Positions 54,596 through 64,000 of a DNA stretch of 64,000 nt are shown one piece after another (position 1 is the first letter of the stretch; every line of letters begins with the position of its first letter). The stretch is taken from positions 96,001-160,000 of the forward strand of contig JBNLAH010000005.1 in NCBI GenBank assembly GCA_050302075.1, written 5' to 3'. The notes under the pieces are model-generated. The model searched no databases, was not told where the DNA came from, and worked only from the letters and a program-made list of their open reading frames with translations. Origin of the DNA: Parachlamydiales bacterium. Lineage in GTDB: Bacteria; Chlamydiota; Chlamydiia; Chlamydiales; SM23-39. A program made the position numbers and the translations under genes.

Positions 54596-57457
54596 TTATT
54601 TTTTGTAACAATTGCGAATGTCAAATGATTGTGAATTTCCAACATTAATATCGAAGACATCCGATTGAATTAACGAATAAATTGAAGTAGAAACAAGTGG
54701 AATAAGAGGCTTTTCGTCATAAAGTATCTTTTCAGCTTGTTTGTAGAGGCTTTTGCGAGTCTTTAAACAAGAAGTTTTTTGAATTAATTGAATCAGATCA
54801 TTAATTTCCAGGCTATTCCAACTGGCATAATTAATAATATTTCCTAGAGATGAAAAAGAGTTAAGAAAATAACTTGGATCCTGAACTTTATTGATCCAGC
54901 CATATATGTAGAGGCTAATTTGCCTATTACGAATCATTGATAAATATTTAGAGGATTTAACTACGGTAGGTTCGATATTTATATCAAATAGGTCATTTAG
55001 TTGTTTTGCAATAAGCTTTTCAAGTCCTCGAGAATGAACGGTTGCATAAATTTTTTCTTGGTTAAATATGTCAGGTTTTAGTTTCATTTCTTCAAGAGCT
55101 TCAAAAAAAAGTTTTTTTGCAAGTATTTGGTTTTCAACTTCAGATTCTTTTAGGTTTAACTGACTAAACTCAGGTGAATAAGGAGCATAATAAGGTTGAG
55201 ATATATTTGAAAAGGCGTTTGCTAACTCTTCTCTTTGAATGGCTAATGAAAGTGCTGATCTCATTTTTTTATTGGAATAAAGAAACTTTTGGCAATCAAA
55301 ACTAAAGTATCTTACCTCTGTAACATATCTTTTTTTCTGAACTCTTGGAGAATTTAGTAAAGATGAAGATTGTTTTTTGCAAAAAGGATAAAGTAGTGCG
55401 TCAAGTTTCTTTTCTTGAAAAAGTAATTGGGATTCTTCTTCTGTTGTACTAGAAATAATGATCCTTTCAAGTTTGACTTTTTCGTTTTCCCAGAAAAGAT
55501 GATTCTTCTTTAAGATAATTTTTTTATTGCTAAGCGAATCAATAGTGAATGCTCCATTACATGGATATGTTGTACCTAAAGACTTTGGCCAGCTAGGGTT
55601 ATCGATGTCGACTGATTTGCAAACTGGAGAAAAAGCAGAATGTGCACAAAGTTCTAGAAAATAAGGACACGGGTAGTCAAGTTTTACCTCTAAAGTCAAA
55701 TCATCAATTGCTTTAATACCAAGCTCTGAAGAGGGTAGTTTTCCTTCTTTAACTGCTTTGGCGTTTTCTATCGGGTAAAATAAGTAACTCAAAGGGGAGG
55801 AAAAGTCAGGTTTTAAGCTAGTATTCCAGCTATAGGCAAAGTCATGAGCTGTTAATGGCATTTCATTTGACCAGTAACTTTTTCTTAAATGGAAGCGATA
55901 TATAAGTCCCGATTTTGAAATCTCAATTTTCTTTGCAATTGCATTTTCAGGTTTTCCATTTTTACCAATTTTTGTAAGTCCCTCAAAGAGCATTTTGAGT
56001 AAGCAGCTTGGTTCTTCTTCAGTTCCAATCCTTGGGTCAAATGAGGAAAGCTTGGTCGTTAAACTTAATTTCAAGACTTGCTTGAGTTCTTTTTTTTCTT
56101 TCCAATGGTTATAAAATGAAAGAGTTAAGCTTTTAAGTAGTTCACTTTCTAGTCCGGTTTTTTGAAGTGCACAGCTTATAGCAGATATTTCATTCGTGAC
56201 GCTAGAAGCGATAAGAACCTCTGGAAATTTGCTTAGTACGAGATGCTTGAATTCCTTTTCAAAACCTAAATTAATGGTCCTAATTGTAATGCAAATGCTG
56301 TCTTCATCTTCTTTAACAAAATAATCTATTTCTTTTTCAAGACTTCTTCTATTCATTGAAGCAAATACTTTTTTCAGCAATGAAATTGAAGCGGTTGCTT
56401 GCCTTTCTTGAGGATAGATCCCATAGAAAAAGCTTTCTAAAGTTTCGATGGGAGCTTTTATTTCCTTGCAAAGGAGCTTAAAATTATTTTCGATTGTTTC
56501 TAACAAGCCCCCATTGACATCACGAATAGATCCGAGAAGGCTTTCAATAAGAAGGAATACTTTTTTGCGAGCTTCTATAATTGATGATGCAGCTTCAGTT
56601 GCAATCTCAACAGTTAACATAACTCCATCTTTATGATAGCTTTTTGCTTTTAAAGTATTTGAAGCTTCAATGTGAATATCAGGATTACTTAACTTCTTTT
56701 TAAGATGGTCTTTATTTAATTCTCTAGGAGCGCAAATAAGGGCCGAGAACTGAAAACTACTTTCTGTTAGCTTACTAAAATCTATAAAAACTTGAGGGAG
56801 GTCTTTTTTCTTTAGATCATTTATAGCCCACTGAAAGCTTTTAAGCAGCAGCTCACGATTACTTGGAACAATTAATTGTGATTTTGGCCTTCCTAAATAA
56901 TCTTCGATTATTTTTGGAAGGTTATGCTGAAAAGAAGATACTTCTTTTTCTGAGAAAGTATTTTCTTTTTGAACTTCTAAATAGATTTTTGCAGTGTTTT
57001 CTTGTTGGTCGATTATTGATAAAAATGATCCATTTACTAAAGCGATTTCTTTGTAATTTTCTAAGATTAATTTTTTGATGGTGTCGATATCTAAAGAAGA
57101 GTCTCGTATATCAATAAAAAAGCCAAGAACTTCCTTAGTCCTAAATGGAAACCTAAGTATGTGCCTTAATGTATAAAGATTACAGCTTCCTTTAAAAGAT
57201 GCTTGAGAGTAGGACAATTTTTCTAAAAGCCAAACCAATAATTCATCGCTTCTTGTCTCGATGAATGATTTATTTGTGAAACTTAAAAGTTTCATAGTAG
57301 CATCTAGGTAATTCTCAAAATAAAAGGCATTATCATTAAGGTTCCAAAGCAGTTTAAAAATTCTGAGCTTTTCACTCCCAACTTGATTGATGGCTTCTTT
57401 TATATTAAAAATAGAAAAAAATAAATTACTTTTCTTTTTTTTAGGAATTTTTTCCAT
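54596..57457 (-). CDS. Fusion of a ~460-aa uncharacterised N-terminal region with an OppA-like family 5 solute-binding domain
   Basis: C-half: SFDPR, LFEGLT, YRFHLR..WSN..PLTAHDF.YSW, GIKAIDDLTLEVKL, NGAF, AEKILYDEKPLIPL; no signal peptide or lipobox. Confidence 0.85.
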   Translation of the reverse strand: MEKIPKKKKSNLFFSIFNIKEAINQVGSEKLRIFKLLWNLNDNAFYFENYLDATMKLLSFTNKSFIETRSDELLVWLLEKLSYSQASFKGSCNLYTLRHILRFPFRTKEVLGFFIDIRDSSLDIDTIKKLILENYKEIALVNGSFLSIIDQQENTAKIYLEVQKENTFSEKEVSSFQHNLPKIIEDYLGRPKSQLIVPSNRELLLKSFQWAINDLKKKDLPQVFIDFSKLTESSFQFSALICAPRELNKDHLKKKLSNPDIHIEASNTLKAKSYHKDGVMLTVEIATEAASSIIEARKKVFLLIESLLGSIRDVNGGLLETIENNFKLLCKEIKAPIETLESFFYGIYPQERQATASISLLKKVFASMNRRSLEKEIDYFVKEDEDSICITIRTINLGFEKEFKHLVLSKFPEVLIASSVTNEISAISCALQKTGLESELLKSLTLSFYNHWKEKKELKQVLKLSLTTKLSSFDPRIGTEEEPSCLLKMLFEGLTKIGKNGKPENAIAKKIEISKSGLIYRFHLRKSYWSNEMPLTAHDFAYSWNTSLKPDFSSPLSYLFYPIENAKAVKEGKLPSSELGIKAIDDLTLEVKLDYPCPYFLELCAHSAFSPVCKSVDIDNPSWPKSLGTTYPCNGAFTIDSLSNKKIILKKNHLFWENEKVKLERIIISSTTEEESQLLFQEKKLDALLYPFCKKQSSSLLNSPRVQKKRYVTEVRYFSFDCQKFLYSNKKMRSALSLAIQREELANAFSNISQPYYAPYSPEFSQLNLKESEVENQILAKKLFFEALEEMKLKPDIFNQEKIYATVHSRGLEKLIAKQLNDLFDINIEPTVVKSSKYLSMIRNRQISLYIYGWINKVQDPSYFLNSFSSLGNIINYASWNSLEINDLIQLIQKTSCLKTRKSLYKQAEKILYDEKPLIPLVSTSIYSLIQSDVFDINVGNSQSFDIRNCYKK

Positions 57458-57578: not shown

Positions 57579-57983
57579 CTAATATTTTTTAGGAAGAGAC
57601 TTTTCTTCTGTAGCGGGATCGAATTTATAATCAACGCCATCAATGCGAATAGTTCTATAGACCCAAGGATCACTGTTTTCTCGCATTAAGCGATCACAGC
57701 CCATAATAAATCCTTTGAAAAATCCGTAACGCTTGATTGCGTTTTCCATGTATCTTGAACTAGTTGGTCTAAAGTTGCTTTTAGGGCCATTGGCAGGGGA
57801 GATATTTGATTGGTAAAAAACAATTATTTTATTGGCTATTTTTGCACCGGTAGACTTTTCAGTAAGTTCTTCTTTTGCCCTGTGTTTTTTACTTAACTGA
57901 GATCCTTTTCCCCATGGTTCTTTGTAGTAGTCTTTAGCAAAGACCAAAAATGGAAGCATTAATATTATTAATCTAAAAGCCAT
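57579..57983 (-). CDS. yidD: YidD-like membrane protein insertion efficiency factor
   Basis: FYQSNISP...FRPTSSRY..AIKRYGFFKG..DRLMREN; N-terminal signal-like segment. Confidence 0.75.
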   Translation of the reverse strand: MAFRLIILMLPFLVFAKDYYKEPWGKGSQLSKKHRAKEELTEKSTGAKIANKIIVFYQSNISPANGPKSNFRPTSSRYMENAIKRYGFFKGFIMGCDRLMRENSDPWVYRTIRIDGVDYKFDPATEEKSLPKKY

Positions 57984-58917
57984 ATTGCAAAGAAAACACT
58001 GGAAATAGTTTATAATGGTTCATTATCTTTGTGGCCATACCCTCGTATAACCTTTCGTTATAGTATCTGGCCTCAAGGCCTGCCCCATGAATACCCCCAA
58101 AATACCAACCAAGTTCGAAGCTTGTAGTAATAACACCCGCAGCTATTTCTCCTTTGGAGAAAAAATGGGCGGCAGCCCCAATGAATAATGCATTTATAAA
58201 AAAAGATGTAACAGCTGCTTTTTTTTGTCCTACATAAAGATAGCCAGTTCCAGGTAGCAGAGCATTAAAGCCCTTGGCTTTTGAGATTGATTTTTTATTT
58301 TGTGAATAGCTAGCTATAAGAAAAGATACATCTTTTTCGTAGTCGGTGGATTTTGATAGTTTTTCCATTTGAGGAATGTTGGCATTTAAGAAGGCTTGAG
58401 ATATTTGAATTTTTTTAGCACTTTTAGGAAAGTCCCTATTCAAAAGACTAAATACTTGTTCTGCCATTTGACAGTTTCCGGTTTTTAAATAGCTAGTATG
58501 TAAAATTATCAAAAGGTCGTGGTAAGGAGGAAAAGATTTGTCAACATGAGCCAATTCCGTTTTTTCAAATAAATTGACTACATCATCGTATCTATCACCT
58601 AGAAAATAGCAGAGTAAAATATTGTACTGTATTTCTAAAGCTCTGTCGGAGTCATCTTCTGTAAGAAGAAACTCAGCTCTTTTAAATGTTGAAACAGCTC
58701 TGTAAAGGTCCATCTCTTTAGCAAATCTAATTGCAATGATGTATTCCTTTGCCCATCCTTTTTCCCTATCAGCAGGATCAATAGGGGAGAAAGCAGGTTT
58801 TAGCTTATTGATATAGCTTTCTTCTAGCTGGTGATTTATTTTTGGCTCTATTTTATCTGGAACTCTATAGCATCCGATAGTAAATAAAGTTAGCAAAAAA
58901 AGAGTGATTCTAGTCAT
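57973..58917 (-). CDS. TPR-like lipoprotein with C-terminal hydrophobic region
   Basis: Lipobox LFTIGC, helical YRAVSTFKRA repeats, LPGTGYLYVG followed by hydrophobic helices. Confidence 0.7.
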   Translation of the reverse strand: MTRITLFLLTLFTIGCYRVPDKIEPKINHQLEESYINKLKPAFSPIDPADREKGWAKEYIIAIRFAKEMDLYRAVSTFKRAEFLLTEDDSDRALEIQYNILLCYFLGDRYDDVVNLFEKTELAHVDKSFPPYHDLLIILHTSYLKTGNCQMAEQVFSLLNRDFPKSAKKIQISQAFLNANIPQMEKLSKSTDYEKDVSFLIASYSQNKKSISKAKGFNALLPGTGYLYVGQKKAAVTSFFINALFIGAAAHFFSKGEIAAGVITTSFELGWYFGGIHGAGLEARYYNERLYEGMATKIMNHYKLFPVFSLQYGF

Positions 58918-61900
58918 CTTCGTATGATTTAATCATTTCCATAGCTTCATCTGTTTCATTTTCTAAAGCAGCATTCCCGGCTTTTTCTCTAAAGAAGTCT
59001 TCTTGCTGCTCAGTAATTGCTTGCATGTCTTCTAAAGAAGTAATGATATGCGGCTTTAAGAAAATAACAATATTTCTATCATTTTCAAGATTATTATTTA
59101 AACTAAATGCAGCTCCAATTAAAGGTAGTCCTCCAAGGCAGGGAATACCTGATTTGCTTCGATTTTTGGTTTGAGTTACCATGCCGGTCAAGATTAAGAA
59201 ATTTTTGTTTGGTACATGGAATGTTGTATCTAAGCTTGTTTTAGAGGTGGTGATTCCTTGAACATTATTAACAATCAAGTTTTGTTGGTCAGTTGTTTCT
59301 TGTCTGGAAAGTTTAAGTTGCAATGTCACAACATCCGAGTTACCAAGAACTGGAGTTATTTCCATATCAACACCAATATCACGATATTCAATGTTGGTAG
59401 TAGAAACAGTATTTGCACCTTCATTTTGAACAAAAGAACCAATAAATGGGATGTTAAATCCAATAAATAAATTAGATTTTTTACTGTCTTGAGCAAATAC
59501 TTTAGGGGTAGTCACGATGACAGTTTCATTATCTTGTTGAAGGGCTGTCATAAGCGATCCCATTGAAACAAATGACTGTCCTTTGTGAAAGATTACATCA
59601 CCGATTGCACCTAAACTAAAGCCACTTGAGAATGGGATGTCCGTTGGAACAGGGGTAGTTGTAGCATTGATCTGCTGGAATTGTCCTGGAAACGTTCCAC
59701 TTGCAGTAGAGGTGTTTGGGGGTAAATTGTTGAAGCTGGCAGATGCTTTATCTTTCCATTTGCCCTTACCTAGCCAATCTAGCCCAAAGTTCAAGGTATT
59801 TGTAAGTGATGTTTCGATAACTAGGACTTCAATAAAAACTTGTTTTAAAGGAATATCTAAACTTTTAATAAGCTCTCTTAGTCTTGTTAAAATTGGCTGT
59901 GATCCTGTGATCAGTAGTGAGTTAGTAACTTCTATCCATTGGATTGCATTAATAGTTTCTATTAAGGTTTTGTCGGCAGCTTTAGACTCTAGCAAGTCTT
60001 TTGCAATTGATCTAAGTGCACTTCTAATTTGCTCTCCTTTGTGATACTGAAGCTTATAGACTAAAAAGTTAGTTGAGCCGGTAGGAGACATAGTAGGTTC
60101 GTGGACTGATGATAAGCCATCAGATGGAGAATCAATTTCAGTTATTAAGCTCTTAACTTTGTCAATGGTCTGTTTGTCTCCAGTGACTATTAAAGACTTA
60201 TTAGACTCAACCCATCTTGTGTTGTTTAGCGCTTGGTGAAGTTTAGGGTCACATAAGCCACTCATCTTTAAGTTTTCACCAAATTCTTCAAGCTGTCTTT
60301 GGAGCTCGATTCCAGATAGATATTTTGGCTTATAAATAAAGAACTCTGCTTCTCCTTCTTGAAAACACTCGACGGCCCCAATAGGCGCAACATCAAATTT
60401 TTCAACAAGTGCTTGCGCTTTTTCTAAAGAAGCTGGATCACCTGTGAAAAGTAATGAGTTTGTCTCAGGTACATATTTCATGCTATCAAGGGCTTGAATG
60501 AATCTAGAATCAGCCGTGCCTGATCTTTTCAGGTCTTTAGTAATTTGTTTGACAGATGATTGAATTTGTGAGCCTGATGAGTTTCTAATCTTATACAGTA
60601 AAAATGTTGATTTACCAATTTGCTGAATTCGTGACTTGGATGCTTCATCATCGATATTGTCTAAAAGTGCTTGTAACTTTTTTAACGCTTCAGGGGTACC
60701 TGTAAAAATAAATGATTGAGTTGTATCGTTGTATTTCATCCCCTTAATTGCGCTAAGAAGGGCAGAGTCAGCCAGATCAGACTTTTTTAAGTTGCTAGCA
60801 ATTTCGTCTAACGATTTTTGAATAATCTCAGCTGGAATATTTTTTGGTTTATACATCAAAAAGTCAGTCTGTCCAATCCCAGACATATCTCTTTTTACAT
60901 CGAACTGAGCTACGATATTTTTAGCTTCTTCTAGAGTCTTAGGATAACCTGTTAGAAGAATAGAGTTAGTTTCTTTAACCCACTTTGCATTGTCTAAAGT
61001 ATCAATTAGATCGGAGTCTTTAAGCCCTGTTGCTTTTAAATTGCTTGCAAACTTCTCAAGATCCTCTTCGACAATTGCTCCTGAAATATTTTGAAGTTTA
61101 TATAAGTAATAAGAAGAAAGCGCATGTTTTTGGGCTTCTTCAGGTACATCAAAAGAATCTAATAAACTCTTAACCTTTTCTAAAGCAAACTCAGGCCCAG
61201 AAAACATTAAAGATCTCGACTCTGGAACCCATTTCATGGATTTGATGGCTTGAATAATAGGCTCGTTTTTTAGTCCTGATTTAGAGAGGTTTTGAACAAC
61301 TTCTTTTAAATACTGTTCAGCCCTATCTTTTGGTACATATTTCAGCTGATAAATAAAATAAGTTTGTTGAGCTCCTGAAATTTCTTTAGAGTCAATATCT
61401 TTTAGCAACAGCTCCAACTTTTGTAAAGAAGCTGAATCACCTGTAAAGATAATTGACTGTGTATTTTTTATAAATTTCCCACTTTCAATGGCTCTTAGGA
61501 GAGCTGGATTTGCTAAGTTTGAAGATTCAAAGCTTTGCGCCATTTCTTTTAATGACTCCAGGACTTGATCTCCAGTTAGATTTTGAGGGTGGTAAATAAG
61601 AAATTGATTGCTAATTGGCAACAGCCCATTTTTTTGGTCAAAACTCTCTAACAAGCTTTTTAGTTTTTTTATTCCAGACTCAGGGCCTGTGAATAAAAGA
61701 GAGTTTGTATCAGGCATGTACTTTGCTGATTCAATGGTCTCAATCAAATCCTTTTCTTCAACATCAGCTTTTTTTAGGTCCTTAGCAGTAGCTTTAAGGG
61801 CATCTAATAAAGTAGTGTGCGATGTGTTTTCTACTTTGTACATCCAAAAAGTTTTTTTGTGAGATAACAAATCTCCATTTGCTTCAGTGTCAGCTGATAT

Positions 61901-63184
61901 TAGTATTTCTTTTATTTTTTCAAAAACTTCCGAGCTTCCGGTGAATAAAATTGAATTGGTAGAGGTGATCATTTTAGAGTTTTTCAATGCATCGATCAAA
62001 CTCTCGTCAGGATATTTCGAGCTGACTAGCTCTTCCGTATACTTGTCTAAAGCAGTTTTCAAACCGGCTAAGCTTAAGTTTTGTGGCTTATAGATATAAA
62101 ATTTTGTAGAGCCTGCAAAGGTACCTTTGTCTGGATTGTCAATTGTAGCTAGCAGTTCTTTTATTTTTAAAATTGAGGTCGCACTGCCTGTAAATAAGAT
62201 GGAATTTGTTTCTGGAATAAATGCTAATGAATTGATTGCATCGATTAAGTCTTTTTCAGGTGTTCCGCTTTCTTTAATCGAGTCTTTGATTTTGTTTAGG
62301 GCCTTAATAAGCTCTTGTGCACTTTTAGTAACTGGCTGGTAAATGAAAATATTTTCATTTTTAATTTGTCTGCCTTTCATGGGCCCTTTGCTTTCAACGT
62401 CAATACTTGTAAAGACTTTGATTGCTTTCTCAGCAAGCCTTGGTGTTGAGACTATATAAATAGTGTTCGTAGATTCCTGAGGAACTAAAATAAAAGGGTT
62501 TCCTGCTGCGAGGGGAGCCATAAGTTGATTTGCCAAACTGATAATATAGTTTGGATGATTATAACTGGCATGATATGACTTGATCTCGAGTGGAGTGTCA
62601 GGAGAATCTAAATTCTCAATTAACGAGTCGATTTTTTCTAGATTCGTTGTAATATCAGTTAATACAATTTGTCTTGTTTCAGGTAGAACATCTAAGATGG
62701 CGCTTTCAGAGATCATCGATCCAATTATTGCTGCTATAGACTCTACAGACGTGTTTTGTATCTTGAATACCTTGGTTAAAATAGGGGCGCTTGAATCTAT
62801 TTTTTCATTATCTTTAGATACTTGAGCTAGTTGCTTGACATTAGTAGCTTTTGTGATAATTAAATTGTTATCTTGCTCTAAGATATGCATACCGTTAATT
62901 CTTAAGGACTGAATTAACGTGGACATTAAACTGTCTTTAGTGATTGGTTCACTAGAGGTTACAGAGATAGTATAAGGCTCTAACTCTGCTTGATCATAGA
63001 TAAAGTTCAGTGATGCTACTTTTCCAACAAATTTGACGTATTCAATCAACGATACATTCTTGTAGTCAATTGTATACCCCTGACTTGCTTGTTTGTTCTC
63101 TTTTGCTGAAATGCTATGAGATAAAAAACATCCCAAAAGAACAAATGGAAAAAAGAATTTGGTTTTACAAAAAACCATTTTCAT
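58910..63184 (-). CDS. sctC: Type III secretion outer-membrane secretin (CdsC/SctC) with expanded N-domain repeats
   Basis: Signal peptide; chlamydial CdsC-like N0 (YTIDY.NVS..E.VKFV.K...NF); C-terminal secretin domain (LDIPLKQVFIEVLVIET, GIPCLGGLPLIGAAF, IFLKPHII); lies downstream of a Pkn5-like gene. Confidence 0.88.
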   Translation of the reverse strand: MKMVFCKTKFFFPFVLLGCFLSHSISAKENKQASQGYTIDYKNVSLIEYVKFVGKVASLNFIYDQAELEPYTISVTSSEPITKDSLMSTLIQSLRINGMHILEQDNNLIITKATNVKQLAQVSKDNEKIDSSAPILTKVFKIQNTSVESIAAIIGSMISESAILDVLPETRQIVLTDITTNLEKIDSLIENLDSPDTPLEIKSYHASYNHPNYIISLANQLMAPLAAGNPFILVPQESTNTIYIVSTPRLAEKAIKVFTSIDVESKGPMKGRQIKNENIFIYQPVTKSAQELIKALNKIKDSIKESGTPEKDLIDAINSLAFIPETNSILFTGSATSILKIKELLATIDNPDKGTFAGSTKFYIYKPQNLSLAGLKTALDKYTEELVSSKYPDESLIDALKNSKMITSTNSILFTGSSEVFEKIKEILISADTEANGDLLSHKKTFWMYKVENTSHTTLLDALKATAKDLKKADVEEKDLIETIESAKYMPDTNSLLFTGPESGIKKLKSLLESFDQKNGLLPISNQFLIYHPQNLTGDQVLESLKEMAQSFESSNLANPALLRAIESGKFIKNTQSIIFTGDSASLQKLELLLKDIDSKEISGAQQTYFIYQLKYVPKDRAEQYLKEVVQNLSKSGLKNEPIIQAIKSMKWVPESRSLMFSGPEFALEKVKSLLDSFDVPEEAQKHALSSYYLYKLQNISGAIVEEDLEKFASNLKATGLKDSDLIDTLDNAKWVKETNSILLTGYPKTLEEAKNIVAQFDVKRDMSGIGQTDFLMYKPKNIPAEIIQKSLDEIASNLKKSDLADSALLSAIKGMKYNDTTQSFIFTGTPEALKKLQALLDNIDDEASKSRIQQIGKSTFLLYKIRNSSGSQIQSSVKQITKDLKRSGTADSRFIQALDSMKYVPETNSLLFTGDPASLEKAQALVEKFDVAPIGAVECFQEGEAEFFIYKPKYLSGIELQRQLEEFGENLKMSGLCDPKLHQALNNTRWVESNKSLIVTGDKQTIDKVKSLITEIDSPSDGLSSVHEPTMSPTGSTNFLVYKLQYHKGEQIRSALRSIAKDLLESKAADKTLIETINAIQWIEVTNSLLITGSQPILTRLRELIKSLDIPLKQVFIEVLVIETSLTNTLNFGLDWLGKGKWKDKASASFNNLPPNTSTASGTFPGQFQQINATTTPVPTDIPFSSGFSLGAIGDVIFHKGQSFVSMGSLMTALQQDNETVIVTTPKVFAQDSKKSNLFIGFNIPFIGSFVQNEGANTVSTTNIEYRDIGVDMEITPVLGNSDVVTLQLKLSRQETTDQQNLIVNNVQGITTSKTSLDTTFHVPNKNFLILTGMVTQTKNRSKSGIPCLGGLPLIGAAFSLNNNLENDRNIVIFLKPHIITSLEDMQAITEQQEDFFREKAGNAALENETDEAMEMIKSYEDD
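59853..62358 (-). repeat. About 10 tandem ~84-aa protein-level repeats within the secretin
   Basis: Recurring F.Y(K/Q)(P/L).N/Y...L..L......L..S...D..LI.AI......TNSL.FTG....L.K...L...D unit counted 10 times. Confidence 0.9.
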
Positions 63185-63318: not shown

Positions 63319-64000
63319 TTAAAATGTTCTCAAAATACTTAAGATAGCAAAGTTTTGGAAGTTTGCATCTATTTCATTTGTTTTTACATCGCTTAGTATT
63401 TTCTCTGTTTGCTGTTGAGGAGATAAAAGCAGGTGGTTGTTAATAAACTCTGGAAAGTTTTTGCTCATGTTTAATTGTTTTGAAGGTATAAATAAAATAT
63501 CTTCAACATTCCAGCTATCGCTAGTCTCTAAAAAGTAAGTGTTGATATCTTTGCCAAGAGGATCATTGGTCGATTTTAACTCATTTAGTATTTTTGTATC
63601 TTTTGAGTAGTGGAAAACGCTTTTGTCTCCACTAGAGATTAGGCTGAGGCGATCCAAACTGGAATTTAATAAGATTAAAGAGCAGTCGAAATGTTCTGGC
63701 ACTTTAAAAGTGTTGATTATGAGTTTGTTCAACTCGGTAAAAAATTCAGTTAAGTTAAAGGTTTCTTTCTCTTTTGTGAACAGGTTTACTAAAGACTGCA
63801 CTATTCCTTTTAAAGTGGCTGTTGCTACAAAAGTACTTGGCCCTTCAGATTTTGATTCTGCAAAAAAAATAAGAAAGCTTGAGCCAAATACTTTAAAAAA
63901 ATCTAAATAAAGTGCTGTCGAAGATAGACCTTTTTGTTTTTCGAAACCGGCCTTAATTTGTGGCCATTTTGGAAGGTCTACATGGAAAAAATTCTCTGTT
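63319..64000 (-). CDS. C-terminal degenerate PP2C/SpoIIE-like domain, probably of the Pkn5-like kinase gene of the T3SS cluster (5' truncated by window)
   Basis: Frame stays open from 63801 to the window end (...LYLDFFKV..FLIFFAE..G..TATLKGIVQS..LN..I...LISSG..PLG); lies upstream of cdsC. Confidence 0.6.
   Translation of the reverse strand, partial: TENFFHVDLPKWPQIKAGFEKQKGLSSTALYLDFFKVFGSSFLIFFAESKSEGPSTFVATATLKGIVQSLVNLFTKEKETFNLTEFFTELNKLIINTFKVPEHFDCSLILLNSSLDRLSLISSGDKSVFHYSKDTKILNELKSTNDPLGKDINTYFLETSDSWNVEDILFIPSKQLNMSKNFPEFINNHLLLSPQQQTEKILSDVKTNEIDANFQNFAILSILRTF

Follow-up and report, generated by a model that had tools for sequence, protein, structure and literature searches.

How might an injectisome accommodate a secretin with ten tandem N-domain units? 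This question is raised by a 64,000-nucleotide stretch of DNA from a Parachlamydiales bacterium (positions 96,001 to 160,000 of contig JBNLAH010000005.1, assembly GCA_050302075.1), the whole of which we call the window and which carries cdsC, the gene for a 1424-amino-acid (aa) type III secretion system (T3SS) secretin. Injectisome basal bodies are thought to measure about 30 nm and to contain three or four secretin N-domains. A preliminary description had read the open reading frame (ORF) as an N0 and two further N-domains, ten consecutive units of about 84 aa and an intact secretin domain, and this layout is confirmed by Pfam, by a profile of the units and by the hexapeptides quoted for them. 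The array proved to be a clade-wide trait, and we consider it likely that the extra units, as stacked rings of the N3 type, lengthen the path of the needle where the periplasm is locally widened and that the needle ruler lengthens to match.

Identity of the secretin and nature of its units

Synteny and phylogeny both identify the 1424-aa protein as CdsC, the chlamydial injectisome's outer-membrane secretin, as the preliminary description had proposed; its predicted role is to form the outer ring of that machine. The gene is the last of a cdsD-cdsE-cdsF-cdsG-CT668-like-cdsN-cdsO-cdsP-cdsQ-pkn5-cdsC cluster that runs past the window on the same contig, under gene names that we presume from gene order and sequence features rather than from a family scan. 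The 1.84-Mb genome (96% complete) has two secretin genes, and the second, a 711-aa GspD, lies at a separate locus with gspE next to it, while no type II secretion system (T2SS) genes are present at the cdsC locus. The secretin domain of CdsC is 30 to 72% identical to secretins encoded in other chlamydial T3SS clusters; the genome's own GspD matches CdsC at only E=3e-5 and is set apart in the IQ-TREE tree by a branch 9.9 changes per column long.

Profile scores, taken at face value, would have placed the protein with GspD. The secretin domain (PF00263) scores 111.7 bits against a curated cut-off of 27.5, with a fold that matches GspD, and the whole protein just misses the NCBIfam model for GspD (TIGR02517, 348.9 bits, cut-off 351.35) and falls well short of that for SctC (TIGR02516, 109.2 bits, cut-off 238.45). 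The near miss is inflated by the repeats, and a relative with 14 units passes TIGR02517 with 370.7 bits, so that array-bearing CdsC are wrongly labelled GspD, as several source names illustrate. The same preference (294.9 against 81.0 bits) is shown by a CdsC of 920 aa from a genome of Chlamydia size, and the grouping with GspD that the preliminary description had named as a refutation, although real by profile score, thus refutes nothing. A low TIGR02516 score is expected, because chlamydial CdsC has a separate origin and branches within the T2SS secretins (PMC3459982).

Chlamydia trachomatis CdsC (921 aa; PMC4682100 and PMC3459982) occupies the same cdsD-cdsN-cdsQ-pkn5-cdsC position and shares the GspD-like order of N0, N1, N2, N3 and secretin domain, but has one N3 where the 1424-aa protein has ten. 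It also carries a hydrophilic region of about 250 aa before N0, which is absent from the 1424-aa protein, where N0 starts at aa 36. The median N0 start is aa 51 in array proteins and aa 162 in the others; this region is short in nearly all array CdsC and variable otherwise, and is therefore no phylum-wide mark of the family.

Exactly ten units are found by the unit profile, with a 76-aa core and a spacing of 81 to 92 aa, and each of the ten hexapeptides occurs once (aa 279, 362, 446, 528, 609, 692, 775, 861, 948 and 1040). The units are 21 to 40% identical to one another and 13 to 29% identical to N1 and N2. Their DNA copies have diverged, as had been noted, with no tandem repeat beyond an 8-mer and best direct repeats of 24 to 75 nucleotides at 61 to 83%. 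Compared with the last units of 177 other arrays, unit 10 averages 60% identity, and with the single N3 of array-less CdsC 40%; units 1 to 9 reach only 27 to 34% with that N3. Judged by sequence, then, the units are copies of N3, unit 10 being the ordinary N3 of CdsC; the count of ten stands, but nine units are extra. Numbered from the C-terminal end, units 6 to 9 retain 42 to 51% identity to the units at matching positions in other arrays, and the last five units together have position-specific sequence at 42 to 60%.

The suggestion that the array arose by duplication of a two-unit block is rejected, as identity shows no two-unit period with distance along the array: at lags of one to six units it is 32.7, 33.2, 31.7, 31.6, 31.8 and 31.2% over the 177 arrays and 32.8, 34.1, 33.2, 33.0, 30.6 and 28.6% within the 1424-aa protein. 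Real block duplications do occur in other arrays, with a three-unit block at 87 to 89% in one homolog (P0031) and a run at 55 to 79% in another (P0009), and these recent events show that arrays grow in their middle units. A homolog from another assembly (P0002) has the same ten units and is 87% identical over the C-terminal 390 aa, and arrays are also present in single-contig genomes.

AlphaFold2 monomer models of residues 30 to 605 and 765 to 1424 cover units 1 to 4 and 7 to 10. The unit cores are modelled with a pLDDT of about 85 to 94 (units 1 to 4 and 7 to 9) in the order strand, long helix, short helix, two strands, helix, and the linkers between them have low confidence. The predicted order is that of the PF03958 Secretin_N fold in eight of the ten units, all of those modelled, plus one short helix; Pfam finds Secretin_N over seven stretches (250.7 bits), Secretin at aa 1214 to 1381 and type_II_gspD_N0 at aa 40 to 109, the last below its cut-off (25.5 against 27 bits). 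T2SS secretins rank first in both fold and sequence searches, and the atlas clusters for the units include planctomycete Secretin_N clusters (0.91). The closest solved structures, the T2SS secretins GspD, PulD and XcpQ (5wq7, 5wq8, 5zdh, 6hcg and 5wln), have the same N0-N3 order but only four N-domains, and the modelled CdsC units appear to differ from theirs by a longer first helix and the added short helix.

Distribution of the arrays and the length of CdsP

The preliminary description had proposed counting repeats on a phylogeny, and the count shows that the array is not peculiar to this genome. Since the best 120 of 771 homologs, with 8 to 21 units, come from a ranking that favours long arrays, a less biased sample was drawn: 400 Chlamydiota genomes were searched, 160 were chosen for completeness and family spread, and the cluster was obtained from 132, which together with the window genome, and minus seven cut or broken genes, gave 126 whole CdsC (a scan of named loci with a single protein as query found only three). 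Half of these (63) have 4 to 15 units and the other 63 have one or none; none has two or three. The largest array found anywhere has 21 units. In the window genome's own family the number ranges from 6 to 12 (median 9, n=20), so ten is typical there and mid-range for the whole clade.

A concatenated FastTree tree places the 63 array CdsC together, with one single-unit protein that rests on weak data (G085). In a 44-row IQ-TREE tree all 24 array rows form one clade (100/100), and 19 single-unit rows, including Parachlamydiaceae and Waddliaceae, fall outside it. The array rows include Simkania (14 units), Ca. Neptunochlamydia (12 to 13), Ca. Rhabdochlamydia (7 to 8), Ca. Acheromyda (9), Ga0074140 (4) and CG10_35_9 (10), the last, presumably of the family SM23-39, being nearest to the window. 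This clade matches the Group 1 chlamydiae (Simkania, Rhabdochlamydia and kin), which consist of Simkaniales plus Anoxychlamydiales (PMC9816063), and the array is a trait of the clade as a whole. It was likely gained in Group 1, although the root of the tree is unreliable.

The component that changes with the array is CdsP, encoded outside the window between cdsO and cdsQ. It has a variable low-complexity N-terminal part and a C-terminal domain, a layout like that of SctP and FliK, and its C-terminal domain lies nearest to the HpaP, FliK and SPAN atlas clusters (0.93 to 0.88). CT671/CdsP, 283 aa in Chlamydia, is treated as a tape measure (PMC4682100), and needle length is set by the length of SctP (PMC6140923); by position, atlas placement and literature, CdsP is the putative needle ruler.

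A whole cdsP, picked by profile, is present in the locus in 47 of the 63 array genomes, and in these unit number correlates with CdsP length (Spearman 0.67). The correlation holds in independent contrasts, where r is 0.69 (p about 1e-7), the slope is 22 aa per unit and the sign agrees in 26 of the 36 contrasts that are not zero, and in phylogenetic generalized least squares (slope 22 +/- 3.5), including when any one family is dropped (15.5 to 24.4) and with genome size as a covariate. The variation sits in the E/K/P-rich stretch that precedes the C-terminal switch domain (rho 0.66), the length of the switch domain itself being unrelated to unit number (rho 0.0). A second set of 80 genomes, of which 37 were already in the first and seven were dropped (CdsC cut or unmeasured, ruler match absent or partial, or a single unit), left 36 further genomes, where open-frame lengths, uncorrected for kinship, gave a slope of 23 aa per 84-aa unit and a rho of 0.79, which falls to 0.75 when the two 21-unit genomes are removed. 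An earlier set of 11 loci, chosen to span unit numbers and sharing six genomes with these 36 and hence not independent of them, had a slope of 23 (Pearson 0.86, Spearman 0.60, p=0.05). A 21-unit CdsC is paired with a CdsP of 700 aa. In array-less genomes CdsC length and CdsP length are not significantly related after contrasts (r=0.23, p=0.15, n=40).

Ten control lengths do not track unit number (all contrasts |r| at most 0.25), and CdsD, CdsF, CdsO, CdsQ, CdsN, the CT668-like protein and GspD were each considered as lengthened partners and rejected. The periplasmic part of CdsD is 271 to 276 aa in 37 array genomes and 271 to 304 aa in 47 others, GspD open frames are 562 to 964 aa in 80 of 80 genomes with no link to unit number (rho 0.09, n=44), and CdsJ, looked at in the window genome only, has 289 aa. 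The preliminary description had inferred a longer conduit, with a wider envelope or a telescoping basal body, and had proposed a check for lengthened partner genes; the longer conduit gains independent support from the ruler, while CdsD and, in this one genome, CdsJ are not lengthened, and the unlengthened GspD and CdsD leave a generally wider envelope unsupported.

Proposed stacking of rings and its alternatives

Known secretins dock through N0 at the inner-membrane ring, and each of their N-domains builds a ring of its own, with the needle passing through. By analogy with these solved structures, N3, present ten times over from N2 to the secretin domain, would add one periplasmic ring per unit in an assembly of about 12 to 15 protomers, while N0 would still dock on an unchanged CdsD/CdsJ inner-membrane ring. 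A needle that starts at that ring must cross the extra rings, so the ruler would have to lengthen, by about 22 aa (about 4.4 nm) per unit, for the tip to stay outside, and unit number would change through gain and loss of middle units. The rings and the needle path are supported by PMC5745081 and PMC6140923. Because GspD is unchanged in the same cells, the widening of the periplasm would be local, as in elementary bodies of C. trachomatis, where the periplasm measures 28.6 nm at the T3SS pole and 13.8 nm otherwise (PMC4336559).

The value of 4.4 nm per unit follows from 22 aa at 0.2 nm per residue, a conversion borrowed from FliK (10.1101/2020.03.25.007062). A smaller value, 2.7 nm per N-domain, follows from a comparison in Legionella, with 23 nm for four N-domains and 15 nm for one (10.1101/525063). 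On these two scales a ten-unit basal body might measure about 58 to 74 nm, against 34 nm in C. trachomatis, and one with 21 units 88 to 122 nm. The injection machine would then be much longer than any yet imaged.

Several observations weigh against stacked rings matched by a longer ruler, and the window genome itself is the poorest fit. Its ruler has 324 aa, 128 aa below the regression line and the lowest of the 47 (by open frame, 328 aa against 474 predicted), and those of two close relatives are also short (324 and 327 aa). It is just 41 aa (about 8 nm) longer than Chlamydia CdsP, against 24 to 40 nm of extra rings; scaled from Chlamydia, the whole needle would measure about 70 nm, of which about 12 nm would be exposed if each ring takes 2.7 nm and none if it takes 4.4 nm. 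Family means of unit number and CdsP length are uncorrelated (rho 0.37, p=0.30, 10 families), and the relation is not significant within two single families (f9 in the first set, r=0.49, p=0.08; f8 in the second, rho 0.41, n=7). The median ruler of array-less genomes, at 330 aa, is as long as those of many genomes with 7 to 8 units, so that the two groups do not fall on one line. Pfam and PDB sequence searches with the CdsP switch domain gave no FliK or SctP match, and the monomer models, with pTM values of 0.43 and 0.38, do not fix the relative placement of the units. The short ruler would imply that in the window's lineage the rings pack tightly, compress or lie partly off axis, or that the exposed needle is short.

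A second, short secretin is common in the same clade. With the CdsC secretin domain as query, at least two matches were found in 98 of the 106 genomes from other array families and in none of 47 from the window's own. The short paralog has 430 to 590 aa where whole, consists of N0 and N3 only before the secretin domain (eight examined), and lies outside the T3SS cluster; all 35 short paralogs form one clade inside the array secretins (FastTree). At eight loci (L138 to L145), as read from sequence, proteins of 498 to 569 aa with N0, N3 and secretin domain lie mostly near efflux, MFS and peptidase-like genes, and the short paralog is often followed by an ORF of 115 to 200 aa of no clear family, with weak DUF5399 and YscX matches. 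A second cdsP of 168 to 241 aa directly follows the long one in 23 of 47 loci (for example L032:8894-9373 and L023:10021-10500), and its length does not track unit number; it is about 215 aa, and the regression value for one unit is 222 aa. Among 79 genomes with a ruler match (kin not being independent), 42 of the 43 with two rulers also have the short secretin, which in 15 others accompanies a single ruler; of the 22 that lack it, one has two rulers. Many Group 1 cells may thus contain injectisomes of two sizes, the window genome's family having the long version alone. The fuller picture, in which injectisome length is stepped by N3 number (4 to 21 units, a basal body of about 45 to 120 nm) at a locally ballooned periplasm and the same export apparatus is also used by most of these cells for a second, short version, is one we put forward only tentatively, with the odds somewhat against it.

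The alternative that fares best is that the array is a compressible spring, loose at rest and closed upon host contact, with a ruler that measures the shorter working length. This would extend the contraction of the C. trachomatis basal body from 34 to 29 nm, reported to involve the periplasmic domains of CdsC and CdsD (PMC4682100), and it would account for the short ruler of the window genome; the rings of Thermus PilQ likewise shift, by about 3 nm (PMC4463427). Free compression would, however, loosen the link to the ruler, which is strong in the clade, and we regard the spring, compatible as it is with stacked rings, as rather unlikely.

It is less likely still that the extra units lie outside the channel axis as a periplasmic collar or anchor and that CdsP is longer for other reasons, such as selection for a longer exposed needle where the surface coat is thicker or the host membrane lies further off. 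A collar would fit the rulers of only 312 to 326 aa in the window genome and in several genomes with 7 to 8 units, the unchanged CdsD and GspD, and the low-confidence linkers between modelled units, which may be flexible. Yet the units are flanked by the outer-membrane barrel on one side and, on the other, by N0-N2, the part that docks at the inner membrane in known secretins. The increment of 22 to 23 aa per unit, about what one ring should require, was obtained in two sets, and the position-specific sequence of the last five units is what stacked interfaces would be expected to keep.

A wider envelope throughout Group 1, with all trans-envelope machines lengthened, has a precedent in Thermus PilQ (PMC5745081, PMC4463427) and is improbable here, given the lengths of GspD (711 aa in the window genome) and CdsD, which do not follow unit number, the 289-aa CdsJ of the window genome and the even shorter secretin that the same cells often encode. 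That the protein is a type II GspD or its array an assembly artefact is, despite the TIGR02517 score and the GspD structures as best solved relatives, almost certainly wrong, and we reject both on the T3SS cluster, the separate gspD-gspE, the like scores of other CdsC, the diverged DNA copies and the recurrence of arrays in hundreds of independent assemblies, P0002 and the single-contig genomes among them.

Stacked N-domain rings that span a wide periplasm, with flexibility between rings, are known from the PilQ of Thermus thermophilus (PMC5745081, PMC4463427), a type IV pilus secretin with six rings and 35 nm. In contrast, the 1424-aa CdsC has 13 N-domains (relatives up to 24) and belongs to an injectisome with a length gauge encoded alongside, and its stacking is the part we infer; the injectisome setting and the ruler are what array CdsC adds. 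A literature search, mainly of open-access text, found no description of N3 arrays in CdsC or of covariation with CdsP, with the caveat that domain layouts in PMC4682100 (Supplementary Figs 2 and 3) and PMC3459982 (Fig. 6B) could include an array. The array CdsC is thus apparently an undescribed, clade-wide variant of the CdsC family.

With half of the sampled chlamydial CdsC carrying 4 to 15 copies of one ring-building domain and a ruler that changes with copy number, nature provides a series for testing the molecular-ruler model and, with it, the question whether the needle's stretch within the basal body is counted in the ruler's measurement. The covariation also speaks, independently, for N-domain arrays as a means of lengthening a secretin channel. 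The genus Simkania is cultured and has 14 units, which makes the prediction open to tomography. The annotation of the many array CdsC now labelled GspD can also be corrected.

Features of the locus and other observations

Table 1. Features in and around cdsC, in window coordinates; all lie on the minus strand
Feature	Residues	Position	Strand	Basis
cdsC (sctC), T3SS secretin with expanded N3 array	1-1424	58910..63184	minus	ORF, Pfam, NCBIfam, gene order
Probable Sec signal peptide	1-27	63104..63184	minus	read from sequence
N0	36-112	62849..63079	minus	PF21305; model m656ee74ef046 matches XcpQ N0-N2 structures
N1	133-195	62600..62788	minus	model and sequence comparison
N2	199-264	62393..62590	minus	model and sequence comparison
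Nine extra N3-type units	starts 277, 360, 444, 526, 607, 690, 773, 859, 946	60122..62356	minus	unit profile, models
Unit 10, the ordinary N3, adjoining secretin domain	1038-1113	59846..60073	minus	identity to other N3
Secretin domain and C-terminal helices	1114-1424	58913..59845	minus	PF00263; best solved relatives, by sequence and by fold, GspD 5wq7, 5zdh, 6i1y
pkn5, 3' part (522 aa whole; start beyond window), directly upstream of cdsC		63319..63999	minus	ORF, gene order
Predicted lipoprotein, 314 aa, overlapping cdsC stop; candidate pilotin		57973..58917	minus	conserved adjacency to cdsC

A lipobox-like motif in the signal peptide region of CdsC is not conserved (2 of 63 array proteins). 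The predicted lipoprotein may be a pilotin; according to PMC4682100, none is known for the chlamydial T3SS. Of 32 genomes searched, 28 have a homolog, and in 27 of these, array-bearing and array-less alike, it follows cdsC at no more than about 3.5 kb; the four in which no homolog was found are three Chlamydia-sized genomes and one other. TPR matches below the cut-off are present in two of three homologs and absent from the 314-aa protein of the window. In Pkn5 the C-terminal half matches SpoIIE (PP2C-like) weakly, below the cut-off (E=1e-4). Further along, an ORF of 953 aa (54596-57457, minus strand) has a family 5 solute-binding domain at aa 502 to 873, preceded by about 500 residues with no Pfam match.

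Some CdsC are long by other means. Two single-unit proteins (L060:309-6110, 1934 aa, and L052:196-5484, 1763 aa) are of this kind, and the first has about 1200 E/K-rich residues between N2 and N3, in the same place as the array, together with a CdsP of 480 aa; this insert is perhaps an independent way of lengthening the channel. Three further loci (L130:11425-19698, L132 and L124) encode single-unit CdsC of 1889 to 2758 aa, with about 2000 residues lacking a Pfam match before N0 in L130. Two array-less loci (L042 and L099) have two tandem full-length cdsC copies, in one case with the lipoprotein gene between them, and one genome (G108), whose CdsC has 15 to 16 units, has eight secretin matches where most have two or three.

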